Made by a program: the position numbers and the translations under genes | The notes under the pieces: model-generated | What the model was told of the DNA's origin: nothing | Database searches by the model: none | Seen by the model: only the letters and a program-made list of their open reading frames with translations | Shown here: piece by piece, positions 2,816 to 31,321 of the stretch | Numbering within the stretch: position 1 is the stretch's first letter | Layout: the number at the start of each line of letters is the position of its first letter | Origin: Desulfatiglandales bacterium | GTDB lineage: Bacteria > Desulfobacterota > DSM-4660 > Desulfatiglandales > Desulfatiglandaceae | NCBI GenBank assembly: GCA_963662465.1 | Contig: OY759599.1 | Location: forward strand, 2,112,001 to 2,176,000 | Direction: 5' to 3' | DNA length: 64,000 bases

Positions 2816-2816
2816 A

Positions 2817-5141: not shown

Positions 5142-5159
5142 AACACGCTGTCCTTCAGT

Positions 5160-5576
5160 TTAATGCTCTCTTCCCAGAAGGGTTTCCATCCGTGCGATAA
5201 AACCGGCGCACTGTTCAAGGTAGGAATTGACCTCCTCTGCCTGAAATATCCGCAGAGGCTGATAATCACCTTCATGTCGACTGTCGAAGATCCTGTTGTA
5301 AAACTTGCCCCACCGAGGTTCCACTATCCCTTCTCTGATAAGATCCTTATGCAAAGCAGCCTTTACCCCGGTATGCTTCTTGAAAGATCGGCCTTCCTTC
5401 AATAACAAGGCGGTAAGCGCGTAGAAAGAGGCATAGTAGAGATTTCTAACGGCGGTCGTAAGTCTCCCTGATTCATATTCACTTCGCCCGGCCGCCAGCG
5501 ATTCATGGGCCTTTTCCATCCAGTAAGCTACAAGGATGGATTTGTGATCCGGCTGGCCGGAGACGTTCGCTGTCAT
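5160..5576 (-). CDS. HEPN-domain protein, toxin of an MNT-HEPN pair
   Basis: 138 aa with LYYASFYALTALL, KHTGV and RIFDSRHEGDY. Its start overlaps the stop of the upstream MNT gene. Confidence 0.85.
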   Translation of the reverse strand: MTANVSGQPDHKSILVAYWMEKAHESLAAGRSEYESGRLTTAVRNLYYASFYALTALLLKEGRSFKKHTGVKAALHKDLIREGIVEPRWGKFYNRIFDSRHEGDYQPLRIFQAEEVNSYLEQCAGFIARMETLLGREH

Positions 5577-5929
5577 CGCATCGCCACCCCCTCCCTGGTG
5601 ATTTCTTCGTAAATCGGGAGGGCGGTACAGATCCCCCCATTCCAGTCATGAAGCGTATTGACGATGATGCTGATCACCACATCATGTTTCATCTCCACCT
5701 CAAAAAGAGCATCGACGATTGCATGTCGCTCCTTCCAATGAAGCGGCTTTTCGGTCAGCAGGAGTAAATCAATATCCGATTCCTGGTCGCTGTCGCCTCT
5801 CGCCTTTGAACCGAAAAGGATAAGCTCTTTGATAGGGAACTGTGTTTTGAGAATCCGCGTCGCTTCTCTGATGGCCGCCTCTTCGTTCTCCTTTAGTTGC
5901 AATTCCTCAGAAGCTCTCAATCCAATCAC
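5573..5929 (-). CDS. Minimal nucleotidyltransferase (MNT) antitoxin
   Basis: Pol-beta NTase motif LFGSKARGD...SDIDLL. A GAGGAGG Shine-Dalgarno near 5929-5935 suggests a start at GTG 5929 or TTG 5920 rather than 6022. Confidence 0.85.
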   Translation of the reverse strand: MIGLRASEELQLKENEEAAIREATRILKTQFPIKELILFGSKARGDSDQESDIDLLLLTEKPLHWKERHAIVDALFEVEMKHDVVISIIVNTLHDWNGGICTALPIYEEITREGVAMR

Positions 5930-5984
5930 CTCCTCACAGTCGTTGTTAAACGTGGATATACAGGATAAACGGGATAAAAACAAA

Positions 5985-6111
5985 TGTGAACCGGCCATTC
6001 TAAAAGGAAACTTTATATGCAAACCATTCGATTTGTTTCGGACACAGCATCAAATAGTTGGCAATTATTCCAGATGCACATAATATTCCGTTTTAGAATG
6101 GCCGGTTCACA
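5985..6111. repeat. Long inverted repeat between pglX and the MNT gene
   Basis: TGTGAACCGGCCATTCTAAAA (5985-6005) is the exact reverse complement of 6091-6111. Imperfect pairing extends inward (to 6021/6075) and outward (to about 5949/6140). Confidence 0.85.
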
Positions 6112-6149
6112 AATCCTGTCCATTTTGTGCATCCATGTTAATCCTTTTT

Positions 6150-9100: not shown

Positions 9101-9575
9101 TGGGGAGATCGAGTACCGGGTCTCCGCTCCGGAAGACGCCGGGAAGCGTTCGGCCGGCGAATCGGCAGGCAAGGTCCAGTCCGTCGCGGGTGCCCAGTTC
9201 CGGAGCGAGTTCTTCGCATTCCTCCAGCGTCACGGGGACGTTGCCATTGGCCGCGTCGGTAATGAGGAGGTTGTTCTCCGTAAGAAACCGAGTGAACAGC
9301 AACCGATGCCAGTGTTCATAAGCGGCCAGTTCGGTCAGATGACGGATATCTTGAATGCCGGTTCGTTCATCACGCTGATCCCCGAGGGCTCGACCCCGGG
9401 CGCGAAGGCTATTGCGGAGTTTCTTCTGCTGGTCGCTCATGTGGGAACGGAAGGCTTTCTCATGAACCGCCAGGTTTTCCAGCGCGGCCCGGCAGGCCGA
9501 CTCTGCCAGGACGCGGGCAGCGGCGGTGGTCTTTTCAAGAAGTTTTCGATGCTCTTTGGAAAGAGATACGGGCAT
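6150..9575 (-). CDS. pglX: BREX-1 adenine DNA methyltransferase PglX (BrxX)
   Basis: Motif I LDPCMGSGHF, motif IV variant TNVPY, TQLFTEDYMV and the C-terminal PDLNDGIRQNIRP; operon position. Confidence 0.93.
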   Translation of the reverse strand: MPVSLSKEHRKLLEKTTAAARVLAESACRAALENLAVHEKAFRSHMSDQQKKLRNSLRARGRALGDQRDERTGIQDIRHLTELAAYEHWHRLLFTRFLTENNLLITDAANGNVPVTLEECEELAPELGTRDGLDLACRFAGRTLPGVFRSGDPVLDLPIALNDQVELRKLLAILSAEVFRADDALGWTYQFWQAQRKDEVNKSGKKIGADEIAPVTQLFTEDYMVEFLLHNTIGAWWAGKMGPIEADTEEEARAKVALPARDGVPGITWTYLRFVQDETTKTWSPAAGTFDGWPKFARLIRLLDPCMGSGHFLVFALPLLVRLRMEEERLTAQAAVVAVLKDNIHGLEIDERCTQIAAFNVALTAWKIAGYQALPSLNLACSGLAPSATEAEWVALAGDNSRARNGMVRLHSLFKDAPILGSLINPRTEGGNLIEAEFHELAPLLTAALASSENQKSKFENDTVELAVIAQGLTKAAELLAGKFTIVITNVPYIKRGKQSDSLQKFCQNQFPDSKDELATVFWERCIDLTSTNGCISLVMPHYWMFHSRSLSLRKRIIGEIRISNIAILGTSAFETISGEVVNVGLFIFRKYNPTDKSNIAAIDTSECSTIGQKDSALKSKPLLLINQKKQYQNPDSRIVFSDVGGVALLNEFSETAGGLQTFDKPRFIIHFWELPTVNKGIWYCLQSTVNSTVLYGGRESVVLWEDGKGQIYEYMEALAREGYKSGVWRAGVQVWGRRGVLFKLMGKRLEATLYTGQPFENTTGVLIPKEEKLLPALWCYCSDDAFSKEVRKIDKKLAVTNGNLAKVPFDLAHWQKVATEKYPNCLPKPHSDDPTQWLFNGHPKGSDQPLHVAVARLLDYRWPRQTGSSFPDCSTLDPDGLESFADEDGIVCLPPLSREQPAAARLRQLLTTALGGFNERALIAAAGLKGSKSKTLEDWLRDEFFAQHAKLFHDRPFIWHLWDGRPDGFHALINYHKLDHAMLQKLTYSYLGNWIQQQSEDAKADKPGAADRLGAAQTLQNRLAAILEGEAPLDIFVRWKPLKVQVQGWHPDLNDGIRQNIRPFLLAGDVGKKGAGLFRAVPLKLKDKDRGKEPHRPKEEYPWFWCEEEPGTDPIGGEEFVGARWNNVHLTLARKKEAIS

Positions 9576-9587
9576 AATAAGAGCTCC

Positions 9588-12500
9588 TTAGAGGATTACC
9601 GGACCGTCTTTCAGGGCCGCTTCAATGGCATTTCTGGCGTTGTTTAGCCAGTCATCGAGTTCCCCCTGGTTGTGAATGGTGGCGCCGGAAAGGGCGACGC
9701 GGCGGGCCTTGGGTTCGGCTTCGATAATAGCGGCGGCAAGGGCCTTGTCAAACTGGGCAGCCAGGGCATCTGTCTGTGACTGCCAGTTCACCAGGGAACA
9801 AGACTGAAGCGCAGAAAGGAGTTGCACTTCGGAATCCGTAGCGGGAGCGGTTCGTTCAAATGCTCCGGCGCTGGAGAGCAATGAACGGCGTTTTTCTTCC
9901 GACAGTTTCCGCCACGCCGCGTTGCTGGCAATCCGCGCGGTTTGAGCCGCGAACATGTCGGCATAGGCCTTGTGTGCACGGTTGAGACCGGAACGTAGCG
10001 CATTACCTGCCGCTTTTAGAACGTGAGAGACCGGGTCCGGATCATCCAGCAGGGACCGATTGGCGCGAATCGCGGTAAGGGTAGCAGTCCATTCGGCCTG
10101 TTCAGGCAAACCAACTGCTTGAGCCAAAAGCTTTTCGGTCAGGACAAAAGCGGGAAGTCGTTTGGTGATTTCTTCGCCGGTGGCTTTCCATGTGTTGATC
10201 TTAGCCAGCAGGAGATCCCGTTGGTTGTATAGTTCCAGGAGGAGATCATTGCCGGAGAGGGATTCCAGGGCGATGATTTCCGGAGCGGCCGGCGCCATGG
10301 GTACAGGCGCTTCTCCGCCGGCCTGTGCGGAAATGGCTTTGGCGTGATCGATAAATCGGATTGCATCGGAGGGTTCGTTGCCGGGAGTAATCCTGGGTAA
10401 ACCGGCTTCCTGGAAGAGCTTCCGAACAGCGAGCTTTTGAAGGGCGGTAAGCACCGGACTTTCCGTTCGAAATGACGCCTGTCCGAGCTTTTTCTGGTCC
10501 ACTTCAGCCAACGGGAGCGGGTTGGCCCCTATGCGGGCGCTGAGATGACTGCTGGCAAGTAGCGTCGTCAGAACACCATCAATGGCGTCCTGGGGCCAGC
10601 CAAAGGGCGGAAGTTTAAATTTCTTGCGGATATCCAGACCCGTTTTTCCGGCGCCCATGAAAGCGATGATCGCTACCGCCACGGGGTGATTCTGCGGTTC
10701 GCCGGTAAACCCCACCTGCTCCAGTGCGCCGGGAGAGCCTTCCTTGGCTTTCTTGAGAACCTGGGGCCATCTGGCCGAATCTCCATCATTAAACCTTGGG
10801 TATAACCGATTGAGGACCTGTTTGGCCGCATCCTCCACACCTTCCTTGAGTCCGGCAAGAGACTGGTCCTGTCCGCCCGAAAGGAAGAGGCGTGCGCCGC
10901 CGATGATCTGCCCAATGAGATCCTCGATACGCTGGTCTTCGGCGTTCTGTTTGGTTACCACGGACTGCCGGCATTCCTTGCCCTCCCGGGAGGTGGGATT
11001 GCCTTTGAAGTGAAGGGTTTCCTCGGCGGCCTGAGCGGAGGCGATGGCGCTTTTGAGTTCATCTGCATGGGATTTAGGGATAAACAGGTGGAGCGTGGGG
11101 TCATCGGTGCTGAGCTTTTGGATGTCGGCCAGTACAGAGGATTCCAGGGCCGAAAACCCGTCTCGCACCCAAAGCGTAATGGCATCGCTGTCATCCGGCT
11201 TGCTTTCACTGTGGTGGACAATGACCTTGCGGCGTTCCTTGGCGTCGCCGTGGAGCACGGAAGTGCTGCCGAGAGCGTTCATCAGGGCTTTGTTCAGAAG
11301 CTGAGACCGGTTGGAGGCGATCAAAGGATCGTCATTCATTACAGTGGCCCGGCGTTTTCGGAATTCTGCCTCCCAGGCGGCCCCTTCAGTGGTTTGCAGA
11401 CGGTATTCACTGTCCACCTTCATGAGAACGCCGTCCTGCTCCATAAGGTCAATCAATCCGGGAAGCTGCGCTCTGAGTTGGGTACTGCCTGTTACAAGAT
11501 CATCACTGAGCAGGTCAGCCAGGTGTTCGGGTTCGGCCCGGACGCCTTGGTCTGTGCCGTGTTCCCGGGGGAGTTTGTTGATTAGAAAAACCAGTGCACA
11601 AATACGGCTTCGCAGGCCGCCATCGGGTTTGACCTTCTGCTGCTCGATGATTTCCTGAAAGCGCTTCTGCATTTCGCCGCTGGTCACAAGGATGACAGCG
11701 ATCTGGTCGTAAATAAAGTCAGCCGGCACAACAGCACCCAGCTCGGCATCAGCATAGGCCCGGCACGCTTCGTGAACAACGCTGAGCTGGGTGCGCATCT
11801 GTGCGGTCGTACCTGTAGCGTCAACGGAATGAAGAACGGCGTTCCAGAATCTGCGGCGCACGGGAAGGAGAGGATAGTCCGGGATGTAGGCGAGGTCGTC
11901 CTCAGATTGTGTGGCAAGCTTGGTCGCCTTGAGCTGGCGGGTGATCTCCCCTTCATTTTTATCAATCAACTGCTTGATGTGGACTTTTTTGTCTTCACGC
12001 TTCTGCAAAACAACGGTGCGGACCACCTTTTCGACGTCGTTGTCTTTGAGGTGAACCTTGATCGTGAAACGGCCCAGGAGGCGCTGAAGATTCGGCATAT
12101 CGTTGAGGGCGCTCTGGCCGGTTCCAACGATCATGAGTCGTCCGTCCATTTCCTTACTCAGCGCCTCGCTCACTTCCTGTACATCGAGGGCAGTTTGCGC
12201 ATCCTGCCCAACGAATTGCTGGATTTCGTCCAGTACCAGAAGGGTGCAGGGGAGTTTTTCGTTGGTTGAAATCGCTTCGCGTATGATATCCAGCATTTCA
12301 TCTATACTGACATCTGCTACATTCGGGTAATCAGCTCGGAGAAGGTTCCCCACCTGCGAGGGGTCCTTCAGGTGGTCGTAGCACTGTATGTAGGCCTTGG
12401 CCACTGCGCCGGAGCTGTATAACCGACCGAGTTCTTTGCTGAAGTCCTTCCCTTGGGCCTCAATGGCGTTCCTGAAAGCATCCAACATCCCATCCCGCTT

Positions 12501-13004
12501 CAAGTGGATGAGAAACCGGGCGTAGGGATAGCCTTCCGGAAGCCCGACCGATTTGAAGATCAAACTCATGACGCGCAGACGCACACTTCCTGCCCCGGCT
12601 TTAAGGGTGCCCCCGGCCATGTGCAGACCCTCGTGACGTTTGCCAAGGGTTGATATCTCTGTGAGGAGATCGGTGATTTCATCGGGAAGATGGGCAAGGG
12701 AGCGGGCGGTTGTTCCATCCGGAAACGCAAAGTTGGTCCAGAGATATCGCAAAACCTTGGCCAGGTGGGATTTTCCGCTCCCATAGAAACCGCTGATCCA
12801 GGCCGCTTTCTGCTCGGGAGCATTAAAGTTATCGAGATATCCCTGGAGAATGCGGCGCATGCCATTATAGTATTCACCCTCACAAACAAACGAGTCCAGT
12901 TCATATTTAAGCGTTTCGAGGTCTTCGGTATTGTTGCTGGAGACACCCTCGTTAACCAGCTTCCAGGACAGCGGGTCTTTCAAGAAGATTTCTTTGGTTT
13001 TCAT
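9588..13004 (-). CDS. brxC: BREX P-loop ATPase BrxC
   Basis: WISGFYGSGKSHL, LVLDEIQQF and DYPLLP; 1138 aa. Confidence 0.93.
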   Translation of the reverse strand: MKTKEIFLKDPLSWKLVNEGVSSNNTEDLETLKYELDSFVCEGEYYNGMRRILQGYLDNFNAPEQKAAWISGFYGSGKSHLAKVLRYLWTNFAFPDGTTARSLAHLPDEITDLLTEISTLGKRHEGLHMAGGTLKAGAGSVRLRVMSLIFKSVGLPEGYPYARFLIHLKRDGMLDAFRNAIEAQGKDFSKELGRLYSSGAVAKAYIQCYDHLKDPSQVGNLLRADYPNVADVSIDEMLDIIREAISTNEKLPCTLLVLDEIQQFVGQDAQTALDVQEVSEALSKEMDGRLMIVGTGQSALNDMPNLQRLLGRFTIKVHLKDNDVEKVVRTVVLQKREDKKVHIKQLIDKNEGEITRQLKATKLATQSEDDLAYIPDYPLLPVRRRFWNAVLHSVDATGTTAQMRTQLSVVHEACRAYADAELGAVVPADFIYDQIAVILVTSGEMQKRFQEIIEQQKVKPDGGLRSRICALVFLINKLPREHGTDQGVRAEPEHLADLLSDDLVTGSTQLRAQLPGLIDLMEQDGVLMKVDSEYRLQTTEGAAWEAEFRKRRATVMNDDPLIASNRSQLLNKALMNALGSTSVLHGDAKERRKVIVHHSESKPDDSDAITLWVRDGFSALESSVLADIQKLSTDDPTLHLFIPKSHADELKSAIASAQAAEETLHFKGNPTSREGKECRQSVVTKQNAEDQRIEDLIGQIIGGARLFLSGGQDQSLAGLKEGVEDAAKQVLNRLYPRFNDGDSARWPQVLKKAKEGSPGALEQVGFTGEPQNHPVAVAIIAFMGAGKTGLDIRKKFKLPPFGWPQDAIDGVLTTLLASSHLSARIGANPLPLAEVDQKKLGQASFRTESPVLTALQKLAVRKLFQEAGLPRITPGNEPSDAIRFIDHAKAISAQAGGEAPVPMAPAAPEIIALESLSGNDLLLELYNQRDLLLAKINTWKATGEEITKRLPAFVLTEKLLAQAVGLPEQAEWTATLTAIRANRSLLDDPDPVSHVLKAAGNALRSGLNRAHKAYADMFAAQTARIASNAAWRKLSEEKRRSLLSSAGAFERTAPATDSEVQLLSALQSCSLVNWQSQTDALAAQFDKALAAAIIEAEPKARRVALSGATIHNQGELDDWLNNARNAIEAALKDGPVIL

Positions 13005-13016
13005 TTCGGAGCCTCT

Positions 13017-13571
13017 TCATTTATTGGAAAGTATCGGGGTAGCCAAATAATTCCATCCTGTTCGTGCATCCAGAAAACGATAGGTATTTCCCTCCTTCTC
13101 TCCGGGGAAAAAAACAAGCAGGTATCCTGGGAAGGTTTCTTCGAGACTTTGAATCAAGTCGGATACGTGCAGAAAGTCGTACAGATCCATCAATCCAGTC
13201 AGAGCAAAGACGGTGCTCTCTGGTGAGGAGGCGCGGGCCACCTCTTTTTGGAAGAACTCCGTGAGAAGGTCTTTCCATTCGGTTTGGGCATACAGTTCAA
13301 TATCGCCGGGATGTTTGAACCATTCCTCCCGCTCTTTCTCATCCACTGAAGCAAGCCACTGGGCCAGGCTTCCTTTAAGCTCGATTCGAGCCCATGGATG
13401 GCCTGCGTCTTTAGTGGCCATCTCGAATTCGTCAATACGGTTGAGCAGCCTTCTTTCCTCAGCTGCGGGATACACCGCGAACCAGACACGCTGCGATGCG
13501 GGCAACCCGGCTCTTAACGGCATTTGAATGTGACTGCGATAATTTTTGACTAAATGGTCAATGCGATTCAT
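13017..13571 (-). CDS. brxB: BREX protein BrxB (DUF1788-like)
   Basis: C-terminal LLVFFPGEKEGNTYRFLDARTGWNYLA; lies between brxA and brxC. Likely ATG at 13571, overlapping the brxA end. Confidence 0.8.
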   Translation of the reverse strand: MNRIDHLVKNYRSHIQMPLRAGLPASQRVWFAVYPAAEERRLLNRIDEFEMATKDAGHPWARIELKGSLAQWLASVDEKEREEWFKHPGDIELYAQTEWKDLLTEFFQKEVARASSPESTVFALTGLMDLYDFLHVSDLIQSLEETFPGYLLVFFPGEKEGNTYRFLDARTGWNYLATPILSNK

Positions 13572-14343
13572 GAAGTAAAACCTGTTCTGCTTGGGTAAGA
13601 AGGTTGGAGAAATCAAATTCCACAATACCCCCAGCTTGTTTTAGTGAAAGCAGGCCTTTTGCGGAAGCCAGTGAGAGAGCAACCTGTAATTGGGATCGGT
13701 TGGAGGCAACAAGAGCCGCGAATGGTGAGTCGAGCAGCTGTTCTCCACGAAGCCCGGCAAGGTAACCGACAAACATGGCATAGGCAGCAGAAACGGGACG
13801 CGGCTCTGGAAATTGCCGGGTTTTATTCCTTTTGCCTTCAAGGTGCCCGGCAAATGTCCAGGTGGTGTTGACGTTTTGTGCCATCGATTTCTTCATGGCA
13901 GGGCTGAAGCGACCAGGAAAACCGTTTTCCAGATGCTGTTCCATGTCAGCTCTGGCAAGAACTTCGCCGCGCCGGAGCGTGCGTATAAACTCGAAGCTAT
14001 GGCGCAGCTGGGGATCTCGTGCATACGCGCAGACCAGGCAGAGCTGGGGTAAAGAATCGAGATCATCATGGCCCAGATCCCAGAGAACGCGGAACAAGGC
14101 TTTGGAAGGGTCCATGCCATAAAGTTCTCTTAAATGGTGAAGACTCTTCTTGCGGCTGCTCAATGTAGGTTTTTGCAGGACATTTTCATCGATGACGGCC
14201 TTGGCAAAATCGTCCCCGGTGACAGCGAGAGGCATATCAAGAACAAGAGCGCGCATCTCCAGAAACATCATTGACCGTGCCGAATGGCCCCCCCCACTGG
14301 CTTCAGAAAACCCGAATTGAATGTTCTGCATTAACATAGGCAT
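13558..14343 (-). CDS. brxA: BREX protein BrxA-like
   Basis: First gene of the operon, about 260 aa, with GGHSARSMMFLEM and ENVLQKPTLSSR. Start is uncertain (14343 versus 14493). Confidence 0.65.
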   Translation of the reverse strand: MPMLMQNIQFGFSEASGGGHSARSMMFLEMRALVLDMPLAVTGDDFAKAVIDENVLQKPTLSSRKKSLHHLRELYGMDPSKALFRVLWDLGHDDLDSLPQLCLVCAYARDPQLRHSFEFIRTLRRGEVLARADMEQHLENGFPGRFSPAMKKSMAQNVNTTWTFAGHLEGKRNKTRQFPEPRPVSAAYAMFVGYLAGLRGEQLLDSPFAALVASNRSQLQVALSLASAKGLLSLKQAGGIVEFDFSNLLTQAEQVLLHESH

Positions 14344-14685
14344 GAGTCGAGTAGGTCCGGTTTCCCCCGATATGGCAAACTTTTTCGTAGATGCGTTTGC
14401 CTCTTTTCGTAAAATAGGTTCTGGTAAAAATACAATAGATGTCTTAAGTAAATCAACCTGTTTCTCCTGAATAAACTCAAATCCGGCTGCCATGCGGCAG
14501 AATCGTAGTGGGACAGACTTAGGACCAATTATAACACAAGGGTTTGACGGATACGGTCACAACCGGATAACTTTTTTGGAAAACTGATCTGGCTTGATGA
14601 TTTATAGAGAGAAGAGAGTACAACTTTTGAGCTAAAGTGTCACGGACTATTGGTCAAATTTTGCGTTATGTTCCATCTTGCATAT

Positions 14686-14909
14686 CTGCTATGTATTACA
14701 GCCTTAAAAATGATATAAAGCGTTGCAATATAAGTTTATATGTCAAAGGATTCTCAGAGCCAAATGCTTTTCAAAATTAAATGTTTCACAGGTTTTGACA
14801 AAGAGCACTCTCATGGACTATTCTCAATATATTTCAACCAATGCCAGACCTGTAATACGGAATCAGATATCTCGGATTTACTTGATTTACCCGAATTGAG
14901 GATATCACA
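14686..14909 (+). repeat. att-like site 2: left arm, core and right arm; junction between the two cassettes
   Basis: 14794-14836 matches 17966-18008 at 39/43. 14824-14909 matches 482-565. The upstream motifs CTGCTATgTatTACAG and TATATGTCAA are echoed at equivalent spacing before site 3. Confidence 0.7.
14795..14824 (+). promoter_or_regulatory. Possible sigma70 promoter inside the left arm, facing the HK-REC-TIR operon
   Basis: TTGACA-N18-TATTCT; the same element is present at 17967-17996. Confidence 0.35.
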
Positions 14910-15223
14910 GGGTTTTAGGTTGCTGAAACGTTTGATTTCTGGGTAACATCTGTGCCGTGTAAGTCGATGTAATCAAGTAGTCTATTTAGTCCTTTTTCGG
15001 CTAAGGAAAAAAGAGAAAGAAAAAGTCTCCAACGAAAAAGGCGGATGTTAGAATATCTAAGGAAGTCAAAATATATTTATTTTATAATGACTTATTGACT
15101 ATTAACGCATAGGAGTGATAGGTGATAAACTAAGCAAGCTAAGAATCTATCCGAAAAATAATTTTCGGTTAACTTCCTTTTAAAAATCGATGTATTATAT
15201 TGATTCAAAGGAGGAACTTAACC

Positions 15224-15373
15224 ATGCAGAAAAGATTCAAACTTTCCGAGAGCCAAGGCAAAAAAGCCACACCTGCAATGCTAGAGGGCGGAGAGCTTTT
15301 GTTCGTGCTTGGATTTTTAGAGACACGCTTTAGGGCCAGTTTACCCAGCGGCGTTTCTGTTTCCGCTGGCTAA
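15224..15373 (+). CDS. Small 49-aa ORF upstream of the histidine kinase
   Basis: Strong Shine-Dalgarno AAGGAGGA 8 nt before the ATG. Translation MQKRFKLSESQGKKATPAMLEGGELLFVLGFLETRFRASLPSGVSVSAG. Below the ORF-track cutoff. Confidence 0.45.
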   Translation: MQKRFKLSESQGKKATPAMLEGGELLFVLGFLETRFRASLPSGVSVSAG

Positions 15374-15475
15374 GCTCTGCGTTGGAGATAGTTCTTATCA
15401 AAAAGAATTGATCTTAGCTCTTGATTCCTTTATGAGATCATTGCTTTTTGGAATAATGAAAACAGGAGCAATAAT

Positions 15476-16252
15476 ATGGATGAATTAAGGGCACTGAGAA
15501 ATGAAAATGCGCGATTGAAGCAGGAGCTTTCGGAAATAAAGAAAGAAAGCACTCAATATCTTCAAAATGTTGCTCATCAGCTTACAGCACCTCTCGGCGC
15601 GATAAAATGGAGCATTGAGGGCTTAAAAACAACTAAACCCGTTCCAATCGAAACAAGAAAAAGGCTTTTAAGTTCGGTCTATTCCCAAGCGACTATTCTT
15701 ATTCATTTGATCAAGAACTTTGCCCTAATGTCAAATCTGGAAGCAGATCATGAACTAGGACAATTTCGCGAACAGCCAGAGCCTGTAGATATGTTAAGGC
15801 TTTGCATAAACATGGTGAATGACTTCAAACCACAGGCAGTGGATTCCGACAAGAGTATCAAAGTAGAAGATGGATCATTTTTTGTTTACAGAAAGAGGCG
15901 TTTGAAAATAGTAAAAAACCTGATTGCTCAGGCCATATCAAACATCCTCGAAAATGCCGTGAAGTATGCTGACAAGGATTCTGATATAATTGTTAGTGCC
16001 GTGAATGAAGAAGATTGGGTGGGCCTCAGCATTACGAGTCAAGGCATACCAATTGGCGAGAAAGAGTCCAATCATGTTTTTGAGCGCAACTTCAGGGGGG
16101 AAGCAGCTCGTCAAGAAGTTCCAGCCGGGACGGGTATTGGATTGTACTTGGTTAATAGTATAATTAAAATCCATAATGGCAAAATTAAATTACTTCTCAA
16201 TAATAGAGTTGCTACATTCATTCTATTATTTCCTGAGGGAGATTTGGAATGA
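15476..16252 (+). CDS. Cytoplasmic histidine kinase without a sensor domain (HisKA + HATPase_c)
   Basis: H-box VAHQLTAPL, N-box NILENAVKYA, atypical G1 box TSQGIPI, F-box VFERNFRG, G2 box GTGIGLY. Only about 30 aa of coiled coil precede the H-box. Shine-Dalgarno AGGAG. Confidence 0.9.
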   Translation: MDELRALRNENARLKQELSEIKKESTQYLQNVAHQLTAPLGAIKWSIEGLKTTKPVPIETRKRLLSSVYSQATILIHLIKNFALMSNLEADHELGQFREQPEPVDMLRLCINMVNDFKPQAVDSDKSIKVEDGSFFVYRKRRLKIVKNLIAQAISNILENAVKYADKDSDIIVSAVNEEDWVGLSITSQGIPIGEKESNHVFERNFRGEAARQEVPAGTGIGLYLVNSIIKIHNGKIKLLLNNRVATFILLFPEGDLE

Positions 16253-16665
16253 AAAGAACAAAGGATATTGCATTATTTGTTGATGATGAACCTTATCTGC
16301 AACAGGCTTTATTTGCTGTCTTGGATGCCGATGGCATCAGCTGTGTTTCAACATCGAATGTATCTGAAGCAATGGCTTATTTAGAACAAAATAGTGAAGT
16401 CTCTATAATAGTAACAGATATAATGATGCCACCTGGCGAAAGATATGAACATGTTGATTCATCAGGTGCAGGGTTCTTTTTTGTTGATGAAGTGCTAAGA
16501 ACATTTCCCGAAATTCCCATAATCTGCTTGTCAGTGATAGGAGATCAAAGAAAAATAAACCAATTGAAAAGAAAGGGTGTACTTTATCTTAGGAAGGGTG
16601 AAACACCGCTGGATACAGCTATTAATCTAATAAAATCAAAAATACGAGGTTTTGTAAGTTTTTGA
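16249..16665 (+). CDS. Stand-alone response-regulator receiver domain
   Basis: FVDDE, VTDIMMP (phospho-Asp), ICLS and LRKG. ATGA overlap with the kinase stop. Confidence 0.9.
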   Translation: MKRTKDIALFVDDEPYLQQALFAVLDADGISCVSTSNVSEAMAYLEQNSEVSIIVTDIMMPPGERYEHVDSSGAGFFFVDEVLRTFPEIPIICLSVIGDQRKINQLKRKGVLYLRKGETPLDTAINLIKSKIRGFVSF

Positions 16666-16673
16666 GGTAACAA

Positions 16674-17513
16674 ATGAGAAAGGTTCTAGTAGTTGAAGAT
16701 GATTCTTTTTATTGCAGACGGTTGAAAGAAATTGTCATTGATAACGGCTTAGAATGTGTTGTAGCTTCAAGTCTTAACGATGCATTGAAAATTAATTTTG
16801 AAAACATTGATGCAGCAATTGTAGATGTGATGCTACCAAATAGTCCAGAACAAACTGGTATTTCATTAGAGGAAACAAGAGGAAACTTCCTGTCGGGCAT
16901 AGCTCTATGTCGTAAAATTCACAAAATGCATCAGGATTTTCCTATAATTTTAATTTCAGCAGATATTGCCGGTAATGAGGCAAGAACTTGGGCGAAAATG
17001 CGAAATATTCTTTTTGTTTGTAAGACTGAAGGGCCAGAACGTATAGTAAACGGGCTAAGAACTTTTGGGCTTTTAGCTGAAGACACTCCTAGAGCTTTCA
17101 TTGTACACGGACATGATGAAAATGCTCTTTTAGAGCTAAAAAATTTTATTCAAAATTCTCTCAAATGGAAGGAACCTTTTATTCTCCGGGAACAGCCTAG
17201 CTCAGGTAAAACCATAATTGAAAAATTTGAAGAACAAACACCTACTATTGATTATGTTTTCGTTCTGTTAACGCCTGATGATACCGTGTTGAATTCTGAT
17301 GAATCAAACGATCAGAAAAGGAGAGCAAGACAAAATGTTATTTTTGAACTAGGCTTTTTTTATGGACACTTTGGGAGACAGTCTGGTCGGATCTTAGTGT
17401 TACACAAAGGGCTTGTTGAAATCCCTACAGACATATTAGGGATAATATGGATTGATATCTCAAATGGTGTTGATCCAGCAGGTGAAATTATAAGAAAAGA
17501 ATTGGCCTTATGA
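16674..17513 (+). CDS. Receiver domain fused to a Cap12/Pycsar-type TIR domain
   Basis: REC: VVEDD, IVDVMLP, ILIS, VCK. TIR: AFIVHGHD, ILREQPSSGKTIIEKFE, FVLLTPDD, RARQNVIFELGFFYG (putative catalytic Glu) and IPTDILG. Confidence 0.9.
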   Translation: MRKVLVVEDDSFYCRRLKEIVIDNGLECVVASSLNDALKINFENIDAAIVDVMLPNSPEQTGISLEETRGNFLSGIALCRKIHKMHQDFPIILISADIAGNEARTWAKMRNILFVCKTEGPERIVNGLRTFGLLAEDTPRAFIVHGHDENALLELKNFIQNSLKWKEPFILREQPSSGKTIIEKFEEQTPTIDYVFVLLTPDDTVLNSDESNDQKRRARQNVIFELGFFYGHFGRQSGRILVLHKGLVEIPTDILGIIWIDISNGVDPAGEIIRKELAL

Positions 17514-17855
17514 AAATCGAAATTCTACGATTAACCTTTACTCTTTATTAAAACCTAAAAACTGCAATCGCCATCAGCCCTGGGCGGGCGTGGCTCAAGT
17601 GTTGAATCCGGTGACTCCTTTTGAAAGGCATTTTGATACATATATGCCATTGTATCATTACAATATCAAATATTCAACAATAAGCGCCTGCATATTTTAG
17701 GTGCTATATAATTCTGATCATCGCAACCCGGTGATATCATCATTCAGTCGAGCGAATCGAGGGTTGTGATAACGTCATGGCTCTAACAGCTTTTTTAATG
17801 GGCTGAAAGCCGGTTGTATCTCCAACATACAGCGTTCAAGGTGGACCTGTACTTA

Positions 17856-18008
17856 CTGCTATATCTCACAGTCGTTCGGAACCATTAATCACGTGTGATA
17901 TCGGTAAGATATATGACAATCATTTCGTTACTAAAAAGTTTGCTCCCTGCCAAAATTTCGATGGCTTTGACAAAAAGCATTCTCATGGTCTATTCTCAAT
18001 ATATATCA
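17856..18008 (+). repeat. att-like site 3: left arm plus core
   Basis: TTTGACAAAAAGCATTCTCATGGTCTATTCTCAATATATATCA (17966-18008) matches 14794-14836. Similarity stops after the core. Confidence 0.7.
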
Positions 18009-18010
18009 GG

Positions 18011-18265
18011 TTGGCGATGAAAATGCTGACCACAACATCTTATTTTATCAGGAAATTCTTTCCGAAAAATGAATTCCTTATTGAGCAAAAAGGCGAATCT
18101 TGCTTATTCACGGCTTCAGGGGCTTATCGCGTTGGCAAAATTGGCAAAATTTTCTTTGGCAAAAGTATAGAGAGGGCTTTGTCAAGCGTTAAACAGCATA
18201 TGAAAGAAGAAGGTGAAAATCTAAAAAGCATTCTGGAATCAGAATTTGCTAATACCTCCCGGTAG
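18011..18265 (+). pseudogene. Probable 3' remnant of an SRPBCC/START-fold gene
   Basis: FLIEQKGESCLFTA...VKQHMKEEGENLKSILE resembles the C-terminal strands and helix of SRPBCC proteins. No N-terminal half or ribosome-binding site is evident. Confidence 0.45.
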
Positions 18266-18343
18266 GATGTGCCATTCCAAAACCGCCACATCTCTCGGCA
18301 CATATTGCCAGTAACTCCTAATGGCGGATTTCTCCATGTAAAT

Positions 18344-19492
18344 TCACCCTTGCGTCCCCAGATACTCGATGATCGGGATGAGAAACGAGTTTGACGCCTC
18401 ACTTCCGCTACCGTTGAGGTTGAACGAAATGTAGGTATCGCCCTCGACCCAGTAGGCCATCCAGGTCGTCGAGCCGGGATAGCTCCCGTCGTGACCCTCG
18501 ATCGTGATCCCCAACGAGTCGATATGGATGCGCTCGTAGGCAAAGCCGTATCCGGTCGTTGCGTCAATTGGCCTGAACTCTCGCATGGCCTCAAACTGCG
18601 TGGCCCCAACGATCTGCCCGTTTCGCAGTGCGCGGTGGAAATCGTTGAGGTCTCCCATGTCCGAGATGATGTCACCTGCGCCGCGGTCCCATTCGATATA
18701 CATCGTCGAAAAGTCAGTGTACGTTCCCTCGTTATAGGGATCGAAGAGACAGTGCATATAGGGATCGGGCATCTCGCTGACGGGGGGATCGGTCGGCATG
18801 ATGGTACGGGAAAGACCGAGCGGATCGATCACGAGCGATCGAATCATCTGTTCATAGCGCTGCCCGGAGACGGTGTCGATAACCGACGCCAGGAGGAGGT
18901 AGCCCACATTGGAATATTCCCACGATGTCCCCGGTGTGAAGAGCGACCCCGCATTGAGCCCTTGGTAAACGGCGATTTCGGTAGGTATTGGCGTGTCGGG
19001 ATCCGCCATCTGCTGCATGACGAGCGCGGCCTCGTCGTAGTCAGGGATGCCGGCTGTATGCTGGAGTGTTTCGCGGATGGTGATGACATCGGCATTGGTA
19101 AGACGACTCGCGTATTTTTCAGGCAGATGCGTTGCGAGAAGGTCGTCCAGAGAAATCGTTCTGTCCTGAACAAGCTTCATGATCGCTGTCGCCGTGTAGG
19201 TTTTACTGACACTGGCGATGCGCGCGTACATATCGGCGGCCGCTTCCTCCTCCGGATCGAGCGCGGCTAATCCGGCCGCCGACCACCACCTCCACTGCGG
19301 CGTTACAATTTCGATAGTGATCCCGAGATTCGTCGTGTTCGCGATGCCGTCGGCGATGATATTTTGAAGCGCCGCCGCGACGGACACCGGAGGCAGCGTC
19401 TCCTGCGTCTCCTGGGCCGTCTCCGAACAACCCATGAAAAGCACCAGTGAAACAAAGAGGAACCCAAGCAACAAAGCCGGAAATCTATTCAT
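18344..19492 (-). CDS. Beta-lactamase/D-Ala-D-Ala peptidase family serine hydrolase, probable lipoprotein
   Basis: SxxK (ASVSK), YSN and GHDG motifs. Signal peptide MNRFPALLLGFLFVSLVLFMGC from ATG 19492. Confidence 0.85.
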   Translation of the reverse strand: MNRFPALLLGFLFVSLVLFMGCSETAQETQETLPPVSVAAALQNIIADGIANTTNLGITIEIVTPQWRWWSAAGLAALDPEEEAAADMYARIASVSKTYTATAIMKLVQDRTISLDDLLATHLPEKYASRLTNADVITIRETLQHTAGIPDYDEAALVMQQMADPDTPIPTEIAVYQGLNAGSLFTPGTSWEYSNVGYLLLASVIDTVSGQRYEQMIRSLVIDPLGLSRTIMPTDPPVSEMPDPYMHCLFDPYNEGTYTDFSTMYIEWDRGAGDIISDMGDLNDFHRALRNGQIVGATQFEAMREFRPIDATTGYGFAYERIHIDSLGITIEGHDGSYPGSTTWMAYWVEGDTYISFNLNGSGSEASNSFLIPIIEYLGTQG

Positions 19493-20307: not shown

Positions 20308-23300
20308 CTAATGTTCATTACAAAACCATAAAATATTTTTGACCAGTTCTTCCTTTTCTTCAAGAATATTAAAATGGTGCCGCTTGATTTGGATGACCTT
20401 GAGGTTCTCTGCGATTTTACCGATATTGTTGTCAGTAAGTTTCGGAATATAGGCATTGATTTGTTTTGTGGTAAAATCATCGAAGCCATGATCCACCAGA
20501 ACGGCTTTGAAAAGAAGCACATTACCGCCCAATTTGCCGGAAATATCACTTCCGGCGATTTTCTTTTCCGGCGCCTGGGCCCATATCACTTTATCAATAT
20601 AATTGTCGGGATATCCGACGGTTCTCAATCTTTCCCTCATCTGTTTTGCGTATTCGTCATCGTTTACCTGATGCCGGAAAGAGGAGATTGTTTCATCCGG
20701 AAGAACGGTATCCATAAGCACCGTATCCGTTTTGATGTTATAATCTTTTTCCAGGATATAGGCCATTTCGAGAGCGACCTGCCCGCCCATGGACCAGCCG
20801 GCAAGAATAAGATGGGATAAGGATATCCCCTCTCTGACCAGGTATGAAATATACCGAAGCGCCAGTTCGTTCAAACTGGATATCTTTTTCTCATGATGCA
20901 TATTGTAATTGTCAATGCCGTAACAGTTGAAATATGCATCGAGCTTCATTGAAAGGGGTTCATATACTTCGCATCCGCCGTCACCGGGATGAATGAATAC
21001 CAGCGTTTTCGCATTTTCCTTGAATTGATTGAGAAGCATGATTTCATGATTCGCTTCTTTTTGGTATTCAGCGGCTATCCGTAAAACTGTTTTCAGGTTG
21101 AATATCTGAGAAACCCGGAAATCGATTCCCAGTTCCTGCGAAATAACATGCGCCGCCTCGATAGCCAGTATCGAATTGCCTCCGATATCGAAGAAGTTAT
21201 CGTTTACGCCGACACGCGAAAGACCCAGCACTTCCCGCCAAACCCGGCACAGTTTTTCCTGTATGTCATTTTCCGGCGCCCGGTAAGCCTCTTCCCCCGT
21301 CACATCCGGCCGCGGAAGTGCATTTTTGTCTATCTTGTACGATGGCGTCAGTTTGAATTTCTCCATTTCAATAAAAGATGCCGGCACCATGTAATCGGGA
21401 AGATGATCCTGAAGATAGGCCCTCAATTGATCCATTTGGGTTTTTCCGGCGCTTTCAGGTTTCAGCGTGTAATAGGCCGCCAGATATTTATGGCCTTCAT
21501 GTTCCTGACACAAAACGACAGCCTGTTTCACCGCTTCATGAGACAGCAGCGTACTCTCGATTTCTTCGAGTTCTATTCGGAACCCGCGCATCTTGATCTG
21601 ATAGTCGTTTCGGCCTATGTATTGCACCTTTCCATCGGGCAGCCACCTGACAATATCACCTGTTTTGTAAATGCGCCGGTTTCTGCCCAGTTTTTTGTCT
21701 TCATCCGAAGCAAAGGGATTTTCCGTAAAGCGCTCTCCGGTCAGTTCCGGGCGGTTCCAATAACCTCTCCCCACGCCGTCTCCGCCGATGTACAACTCGC
21801 CTTTCATGCCGATGGGGACCGGATTCTTGTCCGGATCCAGTATGTACAAACTGGTGTTGTTCAAGGCTCTGCCGATGGGGCAGATATGGGCATCGGTCAG
21901 TCGAACGGTTGTGGCAAAAACGGTTGTTTCCGTGGGGCCGTAAGCGTGGATCAAGCGCGTATGCTCAGACAAGGCGAGAAATTCCCGTACGCGTTCCCGG
22001 TTTGCCGTCTCGCCGCCAAAGATCACTTGCCGCAGTTTGAGAAGCGGATTTTGATCACGCATACTTGCGCAGAGATTGAAAAACGACGTCGTGACAAAGG
22101 CGGTATTGACATCATGTTCATCGATGATCCTTTTAAGCGTTGGAAGATCCAGGAACTCATTTTTTTTCGGGAATACGGTACAACCGCCGTTTAAAAGCAC
22201 CGAAAAAATGTCGAATATGCTCCCGTCGAATGTATAACTGGAAAAGGAAACCGCTCGGGTATCCGCATTCAGAGGACAGTAGTTGTTATTGATGGCGTAA
22301 GCGACAACATTTCCGTGTTCGATCATGGCGCCTTTGGGCTGTCCGGTTGAGCCGGAAGTGTAGATGAGATAGGCCAGATCCCGAGGGGTATTGATGTGTT
22401 CGGGATTTTCAGCGCAATCTGAGGATAGATCATCCGGGGAGAGATGGATGACGGTTATATTTTTATCGGTCAAAAAGCCGGCTTTCTCCCGGCAGGATGA
22501 AGACACAAGAATCATAACGCATTCGCTGTCTTCAATTTTATATCGCAGCCTGTTTTCCGGTTCTTCGGGATCCAGGGGAAGGTAGGCTGCGCCGGATTTC
22601 AGTATGCCGAAAATCCCGGTTACCATAAGAGGAGAACGATCGGTATAGATGCCGATAATCGTATCGCTCTTTATCCCTTCAGCCCTTATTTTTGTATATT
22701 CTTTTCTGATGGCATGCGCAATCCTGTTGGCCTCGCGGTTAAGCTCTCCAAAACTCAGGGCCTTTTTGGAAAATACGGCGGCGGTCTTGTCGGGCGTTTT
22801 CAAAACCTGTTCCTCAAAAAGCTGAACCAGGGTCTTATCCTTCGGATACGGCGCAGACGTCCGGTTCCATTCAAACACGACGGTATCGTATTCTTCCTTG
22901 TCCGTCAGCAGAATGTCTTTTATGAGAATATCCGGATTTGTCGAAATGGTATTTACAATACAGACATAATGCCCGGCCAGGCGCCTTACGGTGCTTTCGT
23001 TAAATAATGCGGCGGCGTAACCCACGATGAATTCCAGGCTTTTTGAATCTTCATAAACATACCCGATCAGATCGAACTGCTGGCTCGTTATCGCCGGATC
23101 GATAGCATCAAAGGTCGCATGATCCAGTTTTAATTTCTTTTCCCCGGCTTCCCACTGGCCGAACATCACATGGAAGAGTGGGTTGCGCCCCGGCTCTCTT
23201 TCAATTTTGAGGCGTTTTACCATCGCTTCCAGCGGATAGGCGTCATTGGAAAGAGCGGATACGACCTTTTCCTTGACGGTTTTTAAATACGCCTTCACCG

Positions 23301-26300
23301 TCATACCCGCGGACACAAAGGTTCTCACCGGCAGAGTGCCGACAAACATGCCGAGGCATCTCATGACATCGTGGCGCTTCCGTCCCAAAGAAGGGATACC
23401 CGTAATAATATCTTCCTCCTGGCTGTATTTGGAAAGCAGGATATGAAACGCCGCCAGCATGATCATGAAAGTGGTGACATTTTCGGATCTTTCCAGGTCT
23501 TTCAGGGCGTTTTTCGACTTCGCATCGAGTTTCAGTTTAACGGATGCCCCTTTATGATCCGACAAAGCGGCACGTTTTCCGTCATAGGGCAACATCAGTT
23601 CGGGAAGTGGGCCCGAAAGCTCACCGAGCCAGTATTTTTCCTGACGCAGGTAATCCTGGGATTTCGAGAATTCCTGTTCGTAAAACGCATAATCCCTTAA
23701 GCGCATCTCCGGCGCTCTTAACGATATTCCCGCGAAAACATCGGAAAGTTCCTTAAGGAAAATCTCCACGGACTGCCCATCGAAAATACTGTGATGAAAA
23801 TCAAAGAGAAGATAGGTCTCCTGACCGTCCTCCCGGCGGTAAACCGACGACCGCCAGAGGGGCGCCTTGTTGAGATCAAAGGGGCGGCAAAAACCGGTGA
23901 GCGCAGACTGCATTTTCTCGGAAGGGACATGCTTTTCTTCAATTTCAAGATCAAATTCAGGCAGTTGCAGGATCTTCTGCCTGATGCCGTTTTTCGTTTC
24001 GATAAAACAGGTCCGTAACGCTTCCTGAGATTCGGCAATGGCCGGAAGCGCTTTCTTCAGCCGGATGGCGTCAAAGTCATCACCAGTTCTATAGATCAGG
24101 GTGATATTATACGCGGTGGTGTTGCCCTCTATTTGATTCACCAGGACCATTCTCCGCTGAGCGTTCAGAACGGGATAATCCGGCATATCGGGCGTTTTTT
24201 CGATGGTAAGCGATGAACTTCGGGCGGCGCCGTCGATCAAATCCGCCTGTTCTTTGATGGTTTTTGACTGAAATAAATCCTCAGCGGAAATATTTTTCCC
24301 AAATTCCGAATTGACTTGGAGCGCCAGCTGAACAACTTTGAGTGAGTTGCCCCCCAGATGGAAAAAGTTGACGTTTATTCCCGGATTTTCAACACCGAGC
24401 AGTTCCTCCCAGAGTTTACAGAGTTTCTTCTGGGTATCAGTGGAAGGCGCTTCGTAATTTTCATCGCTTGCTGAAAAATCCGGCTCCGGAAGCGCTTTTT
24501 TGTCAACTTTGCCCGATATATTCAGCGGCATTTCATCCAGTTCCATAAAAAAGGAAGGGATCATATAGGCGGGAAGACGTTCCGCCAGGTATTCATTCAA
24601 AACGCCTGCCGCGATTTTTCTTCGCTGATCGCTTTTAACGGGATTGTTTGAATAAGCCACATTTCTTTTTCTTTCGGCGTTCATTTGATAAATTGCGTCT
24701 TTGAGGGCATCGCGCCCGTCTTGAAAGAAAACCACATCCAAACCGGACTTGTTATCCAGTGATAAAGAAACCAGAAGGTGATAACCGTGCGCATCGGCAA
24801 TTTGGTATAGATCTTCCAGGGTATGAATATCGGCGTAAATGTCTTTTCGTTTTTCGTATTCGGACAATAGGGTTTCATTGTCGTCGAATAAAAATTCGGT
24901 GACGCCGCATTCACTGATGACGCGTTGATTCGGGAAACCGCGGATCGCTATGGTGTCCTTTCCGGCCGTTAGTCTTTCTTCCAGTGTCATTTCGGGCCCA
25001 TATTCTTCCCAGGGAAGTTCAATGGTTTTGTCCTTCTTTCCCGGACCGACCTCAAGAATCACATCATACCGAAACCGGTTCATTTCATGGGCGCTCTTCC
25101 CTCTTTTGGGCAGTATCTCGGCCCGGCGGACCCTTTCGTTCTTTTCCGCAAACGCCATGAAGAACTCCGGTGAGACGAGAAGTTCTTTGTCATTTTTCAT
25201 ATTCTGCGTCGACGTTTTTCCAATATCGGTATTCTCTGGGATTAAACCGTTTTGGTGTTTAAAGATCTGAACAGCCGTGTGAAATTCGCCGAGCAGTCGG
25301 TAATCCCTGACATCGCCTACGAATAGGAATCCCTCCCCAATCCTTTCAGATGCTTTTATAAGGACGTCCTCGAGGTATTCGATGCTGGGAAAGTATTGAA
25401 TCACGGAGTTTATGACGACCACGCTGTTGCCGTTTTTGTCTTTAAGCGTCCGCGGGATCTGATCGATCTCGTGAGCCCGCCTTTTGAACAAAACGGCGTG
25501 ATCCGCATGGTTTTTTTGCAAACCGAGTTTCAGTTTTTCAATCACCTTGCCCGAAAAATCAATTCCCGTATATCGATCAATATGGGGAAGAAGCGGATAC
25601 ATGAGAAGCCCGGTTCCGCAGCCGATCTCGAAAATGTCCGAAGGATCGAGGGCGAGAATCCTGCTGAGCGTCGTATCTCTCCATTCATGCATTTCCTCAA
25701 GGGGGATGGCCCGGCCGGTGAACGAACTGTTCCAGCCATAAAATTCATCCCGGCTCACGGCTCCCGCAATATCATCATAGGTATCGTCATATATGGACTC
25801 CCAGGACGTCATGAACGTATCGTCGGCTTTGTGTTCATCTGTTTCTCCGGTTTTTTGCCCCGTTTCCTTAACCGTGTAATAGGCCGCGATAGTTTTATCA
25901 TCCTTCTTCTTCCGTACGATAACCGTGCAGGTTTCAATCATCGGGTAGGCGGAAAGTTTGTTTTCGATTTCACCCAGCTCGATGCGGTATCCCCTGATTT
26001 TGACCTGACCGTCATTTCGTCCCATGTATTGGATGAATCCCTCCGGAAGCCATCTGACAACATCCCCCGTCTTGTATATGCGAAGATTCCGGCCGTTCTC
26101 GATGTCTTCGGCTGATGCGAAGGGATTTCGGATGAAACGCTCATGGGTCAGTTCCGGACGGTTCAGATACCCGCGGGCCAGACCTTCTCCCCCGATGTAT
26201 AATTCGCCCGCAAGTCCTTCCGGTACGGGCTGAAGACCCGGATCCAGGATATAAACGGTGATATTGCCGATGGGTTTTCCAATATTCGTATTCAGATCCC

Positions 26301-31227: not shown

Positions 31228-31321
31228 GATGACTCGACCTCTCCAAAAAGGCAATGCTAAGGCCTTAAAACGATTATTCCTGGGAAGACATTGTTTTGTG
31301 ACAATCTGCTTCAAAAATATA

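Follow-up and report, generated by a model that had tools for sequence, protein, structure and literature searches.

What is the function of three small genes packed beside a BREX system in the genome of a Desulfatiglandales bacterium, and do they represent a new kind of antiviral defence? These genes occupy positions 15476-17513 of a 64,000-nucleotide stretch of DNA (assembly GCA_963662465.1, contig OY759599.1, positions 2,112,001 to 2,176,000), referred to below as the window. A preliminary description of this stretch had presented them as a candidate new defence system belonging to no named type. The analysis reported here leads to a different answer: the trio is a real, undescribed and widespread variant of a logic already known from the Detocs system, and not a categorically new one. 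The three genes are the following:

15476-16252, + strand: HK, 258 amino acids, a sensor-less histidine kinase core
16249-16665, + strand: REC, 138 amino acids, a stand-alone receiver
16674-17513, + strand: REC-TIR, 279 amino acids, a receiver fused to a TIR domain

The tight coupling initially described was confirmed at the level of the open reading frames (ORFs). HK and REC overlap by 4 nucleotides (ATGA, the start codon of REC lying over the stop codon of HK), and 8 nucleotides separate REC from REC-TIR.

The precedent overlooked by the preliminary description was published in 2023 by Rousset et al. (bioRxiv 10.1101/2023.01.24.525353). According to the available text of this preprint, Detocs is composed of DtcA, a kinase with tetratricopeptide repeats (TPR) and a phospho-His at residue 645, DtcB, a lone receiver, and DtcC, a receiver fused to a PNP domain. 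Defence requires the His of the kinase, the Asp of DtcC and the active site of the PNP. A DtcB Asp mutant shows toxicity that depends on the PNP, and the authors thence propose that DtcB buffers stray phosphate. The effector is a PNP in 80% of the cases, and a restriction endonuclease (PF18742), a TOPRIM domain (PF20469) and a transmembrane alpha/beta-hydrolase are also found.

PADLOC v2.0.0 gave no Dtc match for the trio, which was set beside DtcA, DtcB and DtcC by description. On this basis, both systems place a kinase, a stand-alone receiver and a receiver-effector in one operon. The gene order of the window follows the dtcA/B/C naming, and the phospho-His and phospho-Asp residues are conserved in the family (H34 of HK in 36/36 members, D57 of REC in 38/38, D51 of REC-TIR in 34/34). 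Both effectors would deplete an essential nucleotide cofactor, a property which is only predicted for REC-TIR. Because this three-part logic is that of Detocs, the trio is regarded as a variant and not as a new kind, and the preliminary remark that it was not recognised as a named system is not supported as worded. Within the limits of the available Detocs text, the trio looks like an undescribed TIR version of this system. That text mentions TIR domains in general remarks only, and its full effector list (Table S5) could include one.

The association of the three genes is well supported outside the window. In a set of 5.8 billion proteins, 1,940 relatives of REC-TIR were detected at E<=1e-3. 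Among the best 120 of these, PF10137 is present in all, a precomputed PF00072 match in 107, and 119 cover at least 98% of the query with 51-100% identity. When the search was limited to 50%-identity representatives, 267 matches were obtained at E<=1e-30. The proteins that are 50-60% identical come, by their source names, from metagenome-assembled genomes of Acidobacteriota-type, Planctomycetes and Dormibacteraeota organisms. A scan of genome contigs with a single protein yielded one true relative (L001), which was combined with loci from metagenomes (L004-L083) to give 81 related loci in which all three window proteins were placed by tblastn. These loci are distributed as follows:

19/81 loci: HK-REC-REC-TIR, complete
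3/81 loci: HK-REC-REC-TIR, only the receiver visible, the contig ending less than 550 bp upstream of REC-TIR
17/81 loci: REC-TIR-HK-REC, complete
4/81 loci: REC-TIR-HK-REC, the contig ending after the kinase
38/81 loci: no cognate kinase or receiver detected

The trio is thus linked in 43 of the 81 loci and in two different orders (22 HK-REC-REC-TIR and 21 REC-TIR-HK-REC), with all three genes visible in 36 of them. Where REC-TIR shares 47% identity or more with that of the window (20 loci: L001, L004-L022), the order is always the first one. As to the 38 loci without partner, 17 match the TIR part only and 21 contain a more distant REC-TIR (33-44% identity). The earlier idea that His-Asp phosphotransfer, instead of a cyclic nucleotide, would be the switch is supported. 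No conserved fourth gene was found around the trio in the flanks of the related loci. Since nothing else is conserved around it, the trio moves as a three-gene unit.

This unit is foreign in composition, rare and patchy. The GC content of the three genes is 37.3%, against 53.8% for the BREX genes and 48.8% for the window as a whole, in agreement with the AT-richness previously noted. Of 401 genomes sampled from the phylum of the window, 1 has a full-length REC-TIR match and 8 more match the TIR part only; of 401 sampled from that of L001, 2 have a full-length match. Only six candidates were scored per genome in both searches. On plasmids, no close full-length REC-TIR was found: 1,145 records match, two of them cover at least 80% of the query (31-32% identity), and the best matches among those listed fall on the TIR part. 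The TIR clade is common on viral or proviral contigs, with 135 relatives, and a single one of them is a full-length REC-TIR (L099).

The effector of the trio combines two domains whose key positions can be located in the window:

16674-17063, + strand: receiver domain of REC-TIR (residues 1 to about 130; Response_reg PF00072, 8.2e-11, residues 4-126)
16824-16826, + strand: acceptor Asp D51 of REC-TIR, from the receiver alignment
17085-17513, + strand: TIR domain (residues about 138-279; CAP12-PCTIR_TIR PF10137, 1.5e-32, residues 141-263)
17346-17348, + strand: TIR catalytic Glu E225, aligned to SfSTING E84
17430-17432, + strand: TIR D253, aligned to the trans-acting D110 of SfSTING

An alignment of 34 sequences bears out these domains and the motifs quoted in the preliminary description. 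In the receiver, E8, D9, D10, D51 and K117 are invariant and S95 is kept in at least 90% of the sequences. In the TIR domain, the invariant residues are F142-I143-V144-H145-G146-D148, P201, D203, the series R216, R217, R219, Q220, N221, V222, E225 and G227, and likewise D253. In the model of REC-TIR (pLDDT 84), Foldseek relates the receiver to BfmR, PhoB and CheY (TMt about 0.8) and the TIR domain to the TIR-STING structure 9lmq_B. The TIR sequence compared by phmmer with the PDB leads to the same proteins, namely Cap12 (9lmq, 5e-5; 7un8, 1.8e-4) and PycTIR (8jsj, 2.6e-3). When aligned with 7un8, the window residues R219, N221, E225 and D253 correspond to R78, N80, E84 and D110 of SfSTING. The available text on SfSTING (PMC9402430) reports that R78 and N80 contact the substrate, that E84 is catalytic, that D110 of a partner TIR completes the active site and that filament assembly turns the NAD+-cleaving (NADase) activity on. 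The prediction of a REC-TIR homodimer reached a score of 0.32, against a mark of 0.42, and is counted neither for nor against assembly.

The relation to Cap12, the TIR-STING of CBASS, and to PycTIR of Pycsar is therefore one of a common effector domain, with the PF10137 TIR, the catalytic R/N/E residues and the trans-acting Asp all kept. By analogy, NAD+ cleavage switched on by TIR assembly would be expected of REC-TIR as well. The controlling parts differ: a receiver takes the place of the fused STING or cNMP sensor, and a kinase that of the cyclase gene. Indeed, no CD-NTase, cyclase, STING or cNMP domain was detected in the operon or in 127 + 94 flank ORFs of related loci (Pfam, E<=1e-5), as had been asserted for this locus, and REC-TIR scores 35 bits with the NCBIfam Cap12 models, whose cut-off is 450.

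Profile searches gave a divided result. Those of Pfam (PF10137, PF00072, HisKA and HATPase_c) recognise the three proteins as anticipated, and those of PADLOC do so in part. The single-gene candidate PDC-S35 matches the TIR part (1.5e-43, profile positions 117-241 of 264, residues 137-267) and differs in its N-terminal half, so that there is no full-length match. In the two-gene candidate PDC-M43, a kinase with a partner, M43B matches the CA domain of HK only (1.3e-18, profile positions 228-320 of 347) and the A+B pair is not found; no PADLOC family matches the lone receiver. A literature search returned neither a description of a kinase-receiver-receiver-TIR operon nor a paper naming PDC-S35 or PDC-M43. 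A 2025 preprint on the systematic discovery of TIR systems used PF10137 for its choice of clusters, and the words "two-component", "receiver", "histidine kinase", "response regulator" and "Detocs" are absent from it. The available parts of the surveys of the Aravind group mention receiver domains as effectors, and not the kinases.

Several relatives of REC-TIR have another arrangement. The gene adjoins an HPr-like gene (PF00381) instead of a kinase in L025 (147-1336), where a PIN gene follows, and again in L099 (7820-9087), on a viral contig; P0204 (434 amino acids) is an HPr-REC-TIR fusion. Judging from these sequences, the HPr-like partner suggests that the same TIR switch is served by another donor of His~P. 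Other forms are P0165 (420 amino acids), a REC-REC-TIR fusion, P0217 (427 amino acids), which is also REC-REC-TIR by the positions of its matches while Pfam lists one receiver stretch, and P0247 (459 amino acids), which joins a periplasmic-binding-protein-like domain to a TIR. Among the longer or partial relatives, 22 of 29 scanned have an N-terminal region without Pfam family.

The lone receiver (Response_reg, 4.5e-9) has its acceptor residue here:

16417-16419, + strand: acceptor Asp D57 of REC, from family conservation

Its residues D12, D13, E14, D57, S95 and K116 are kept in 38/38 family members, and it adjoins the kinase in 36/36 complete modules (19 HK-REC-REC-TIR, 17 REC-TIR-HK-REC). 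The two receivers of the trio are 22% identical, collinear from end to end, and have in common an insertion after the acceptor Asp. By analogy with DtcB, as presented in the available Detocs text, it is proposed that the lone receiver acts as a phosphate buffer, and the phosphate sink put forward in the preliminary description matches that proposal.

Taken together, the trio can be read as a phosphorelay of the Detocs type controlling an NADase that arrests the cell, an interpretation to which we give, tentatively, not quite an even chance. The kinase core would autophosphorylate on H34 and the phosphate would be passed to D51 of REC-TIR. Phosphorylation of D51 would lead receivers to associate and so bring at least two TIR domains into proximity, where the E225 active site of one would be completed by D253 of its neighbour. 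NAD+ would then be cleaved and the growth of the cell, presumably an infected one, would stop. The lone receiver, through D57, would compete for the phospho-His, drain stray signal and set the firing threshold.

The kinase is the odd component in this scheme. It consists of an N-terminal coiled coil, a DHp domain and a CA domain (Pfam HisKA, 3.5e-6; HATPase_c, 4.6e-16), and the coiled coil, of about 25 residues, is the only element ahead of the H-box. In the AlphaFold2 model (pLDDT 90), HK is reduced to a DHp+CA core in which a continuous helix (residues 2-51) is followed by the second DHp helix, and the best Foldseek matches are to the catalytic core of HK853 (TMt 0.77), with no extra parts. 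A length of 256-302 amino acids, from longest-ORF calls, is found in 34 of 36 complete kinases, the two others having 216 and 337 amino acids. The sensor-less state, noted at first for the window, is a trait of the whole kinase family. No TPR was detected in HK by Pfam, and a search among longer proteins yielded at best 28-30% identity over most of the query, always with generic PAS kinases, which is weak evidence that no close longer form exists. Two proteins of 758 amino acids with TPR and HATPase domains (P0305, P0314) were considered as DtcA-like kin. With 24% identity and canonical HD and DxGxG motifs, these membrane TPR kinases were set aside as unrelated. Only a coiled coil precedes the DHp domain, so the target of the cue must be the kinase core, the coiled coil or a receiver.

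The catalytic site is unusual as well, a point that had escaped the preliminary description. Its positions were set by alignment to HK853 in 36 family members:

15575-15577, + strand: phospho-His H34, aligned to HK853 H260
15575-15586, + strand: H-box of HK, with Gln35 at H+1 and Ala38 at H+4
16037-16051, + strand: G1 box of HK, with Ser188 in place of Asp

In HisKA kinases, the acidic residue after the phospho-His aids the catalysis of autophosphorylation and the Thr or Asn at H+4 is part of a phosphatase motif, while in GHKL ATPases the Asp of the G1 box binds the amino group of adenine. In the window, Q35 corresponds to E261 of HK853, A38 to T264 and S188 to D411. The phospho-His is present in 36/36 kinases, followed by Gln in 36/36, and Ala occupies H+4 in 34/36. 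At the G1 position, Ser is found in 16 and Asn in 20, and Asp in none. HK thus has neither of the canonical hallmarks of HisKA autokinases, the acidic H+1 and the DxGxG of the G1 box. The N-box (E159/N160) and the G2 motif (GTG) are intact in 36/36, and the ATP-lid segment has its full length when aligned to HK853. The short kinases beside two more distant REC-TIR genes (L023, L026) have Asn at the G1 position and retain an acidic H+1. Judged from these alignments, the nucleotide pocket is unusual for a histidine kinase.

These features, like the neighbourhood data presented further on, weigh against a Detocs-type phosphorelay. The acidic H+1 and the G1 Asp, both replaced in the whole family, matter for ATP-dependent autophosphorylation. 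A kinase without sensor leaves the step of activation by a phage without an obvious receiver. The comparison itself has its limits: in the available Detocs text DtcA possesses a TPR sensor region, whereas HK is a 258-residue core that lacks one and has non-canonical H-box and G1 residues, and a PF10137 TIR is not among the effectors named there.

An alternative that takes the catalytic site at face value makes HK a phosphotransferase of the Spo0B/ChpT type, phosphate passing from the lone receiver to H34 and then to REC-TIR, with its origin in a sensor kinase located elsewhere or in acetyl phosphate. A degenerate-kinase phosphotransferase is used in the Spo0F-Spo0B-Spo0A and CckA-ChpT-CtrA/CpdR phosphorelays, which also comprise a lone receiver, a sensor-less DHp+CA-like His protein and a receiver-output protein, acting in the same succession. 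The loss of the G1 Asp and of the acidic H+1 in 36/36 members fits with such a role, as do the missing sensor domain and the Asn at the G1 position of the short kinases of L023 and L026. The N-box and the GTG of the G2 box are nevertheless invariant in 36/36, and HK keeps a segment of ATP-lid length, features of a kind that Spo0B and ChpT have lost. Moreover, the best structural matches of HK are true kinases, and the output of the known relays is a DNA-binding domain where that of the trio is an enzyme. This role of HK is accordingly judged very improbable.

The same observations can be turned into an inverse, guard-like logic. A constitutive kinase would keep REC-TIR phosphorylated and OFF; upon a loss of kinase activity or synthesis induced by a phage, the phosphate would drain, helped by back-transfer to the lone receiver, and the unphosphorylated TIR would be ON. 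This would account for the lack of a sensor domain to switch the kinase on. The H+4 Thr/Asn phosphatase motif is absent (Ala in 34/36), so that rapid dephosphorylation would call for a sink apart from the kinase. Receiver phosphorylation, however, usually promotes association, and assembly is what TIR NADases need according to the available account of their activation. The available Detocs text describes the opposite behaviour, His and Asp mutants losing defence instead of being toxic. The inverse logic is for these reasons improbable.

The remaining question is whether the trio, read as a Detocs-type phosphorelay, belongs to immunity at all. In the window, its neighbour on the left is a defence system, as originally stated:

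770-14493, - strand: complete type 1 BREX (brxL, pglZ, HEPN+MNT pair, pglX, brxC, brxB, brxA)

BrxA, BrxB, BrxC, PglX, PglZ and BrxL match PADLOC at 2e-55 to 0, and the BREX genes are divergent from the trio. This adjacency is a single case, and the defence role of the trio is a putative one. Within the BREX operon, between pglX and pglZ, Pfam places a HEPN gene (5160-5576, - strand) that pairs with an MNT-type nucleotidyltransferase (5573-6022, - strand), the latter being PDC-S09-like in PADLOC. On the other side of the trio, an ORF of 3,395 amino acids (20308-30495) is followed by an RsbW-like HATPase_c_2 gene (30516-30917) and a STAS gene (30922-31362), then by a DDE transposase (31419-32789) and a HipA-like kinase (33810-35012). 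Accessory genes are abundant in the surroundings of the cassette.

The trio itself lies in an island of 37.6% GC bracketed by two direct repeats:

14784-14836, + strand: left copy of a 53-nucleotide direct repeat, with TTGACA-N18-TATTCT at 14795-14824
17956-18008, + strand: right copy of the 53-nucleotide direct repeat, with TTGACA-N18-TATTCT at 17967-17996

The copies are 85% identical and are the only two in the 8.16-Mb genome. An insertion could have left the repeat as a scar, or a promoter may have been duplicated; between the copies no integrase is encoded. Its promoter-like site scores 10/12, and that of the left copy, about 650 nucleotides upstream of the kinase start, is a possible promoter for the cassette. 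Three small ORFs were considered as a fourth gene and rejected for want of a counterpart at other loci: one of 49 amino acids (15224-15373), which has a strong ribosome-binding site and only self-matches that are significant, one of 68 (14740-14946) and one of 82 (18017-18265). No Pfam family was found for the ORFs of 49 and 82 amino acids. The leader and tail DNA of the trio has no counterpart at other loci either, and Rfam (14300-18400, E<=1) returned only a chance-level miRNA match, of 22 bits for a gathering score of 61.

Defence genes do occur near other members of the family. A Hhe/PDC-S37-like helicase-nuclease adjoins the kinase in L010. In L013 the ORF of a type I restriction-modification S subunit ends at the kinase start and RhuM genes are also present. 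The flanks contain a TIR-transmembrane gene in L031, and AbiEi/Eii with an integrase in L030. On the viral contig L099, the REC-TIR (35% identity) follows a DpnII restriction gene and two methyltransferases in a cargo island situated between the lysozyme/portal and Mu-F genes. Two distant REC-TIR genes adjoin other immune genes of the NADase type: a 944-residue TIR_2-TPR protein and a DUF4062 protein in L061 (5455-11079), and a TIR_2 protein in L070 (3547-4404).

These examples do not add up to an enrichment. Among the 19 loci with a tight module (18 fetched and the window), the flank contains a PADLOC-listed gene in 6, toxin-antitoxin or mobile-element genes only in 2, and no defence, toxin-antitoxin or mobile gene in 11, the HNH-repeat protein of L001 not being counted as a defence gene. 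At a PADLOC threshold of E<=1e-10 and with the same ORF caller, 12 of the 127 ORFs in the flanks gave a match. In seven 20-kb regions taken at random from the genome of the window, 22 of 128 ORFs did so; by unit, this represents 7/18 module loci and 6/7 random regions. Without the cross-matches of ABC/TrwB ATPases (two in L007 and one in L033), 9 flank ORFs in 5 loci remain. This control is crude, as it comes from one genome, includes generic ATPase, HTH and reverse transcriptase matches, and contains a real defence island. The latter, L182 (G000:C1:5098890-5118889), is dense and comprises two type IV restriction-like genes and DrmD-like, TmtA-like, DndB-like and DpdF-like genes. Because the control gave no enrichment, the neighbourhood argument cannot carry the defence claim. 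Of the expectations first formulated for the trio, that of a conserved three-gene neighbourhood has thus been borne out (43/81 loci), and that of an enrichment near defence genes has not.

The trio could instead be a physiological switch outside immunity, lowering NAD+ or producing a signal of the ADP-ribose type on a metabolic or stress cue, for example for dormancy in soil bacteria. Besides the missing enrichment, this explanation draws on the 11 of 19 tight-module loci situated among housekeeping or signalling genes, such as GGDEF, HD-GYP and STAS genes in L007, a peptidase and LuxR in L008, or NorB in L036, and on a module of G536 placed beside riboflavin and electron-transfer flavoprotein genes. 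The HPr-linked variants, in addition, suggest a coupling to the state of phosphoenolpyruvate (PEP) and its phosphotransferase system. The very sparse and patchy distribution, the foreign GC content and the flanking repeats count against it, and no target gene is conserved downstream. One variant belongs to the cargo of a phage, beside a restriction-modification system. Finally, the only matches of the PF10137 clade in the searched libraries were immune effectors (Cap12, PycTIR) and the candidate PDC-S35. A non-immune switch is consequently considered unlikely, while keeping an appreciable chance of being correct.

A bolder version of the phosphorelay can also be formulated, and it is held to be distinctly unlikely. 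In REC-TIR, aspartyl phosphorylation would for the first time take over, in a TIR NADase, the switching role of a nucleotide ligand or filament-forming sensor. Sensing would fall to the bare kinase core, whose remodelled pocket would read a pool of nucleotides or phosphodonors changed by infection, and the HPr-like forms would constitute a second, PEP-linked feed of His~P.

The TIR enzymes of bacteria, plants and animals are switched on by assembly, through ligands or sensor domains. If the phosphorelay reading is true, a receiver-fused TIR adds phosphorylation to these switches, and the trio would offer a small, soluble and chemically triggerable system (BeF3-, acetyl phosphate) for the study of TIR activation. 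The family is found mostly in poorly studied soil phyla, and this is why it has been missed by tools trained on enterobacterial systems. Should the trio not be immune, it would still represent an uncharacterised tie of NAD+ levels to His-Asp signalling. If it is, Detocs, with its few effector types, would reach into the TIR/NAD+ arm of immunity, and a defensive two-component system could work without a recognisable sensor domain.

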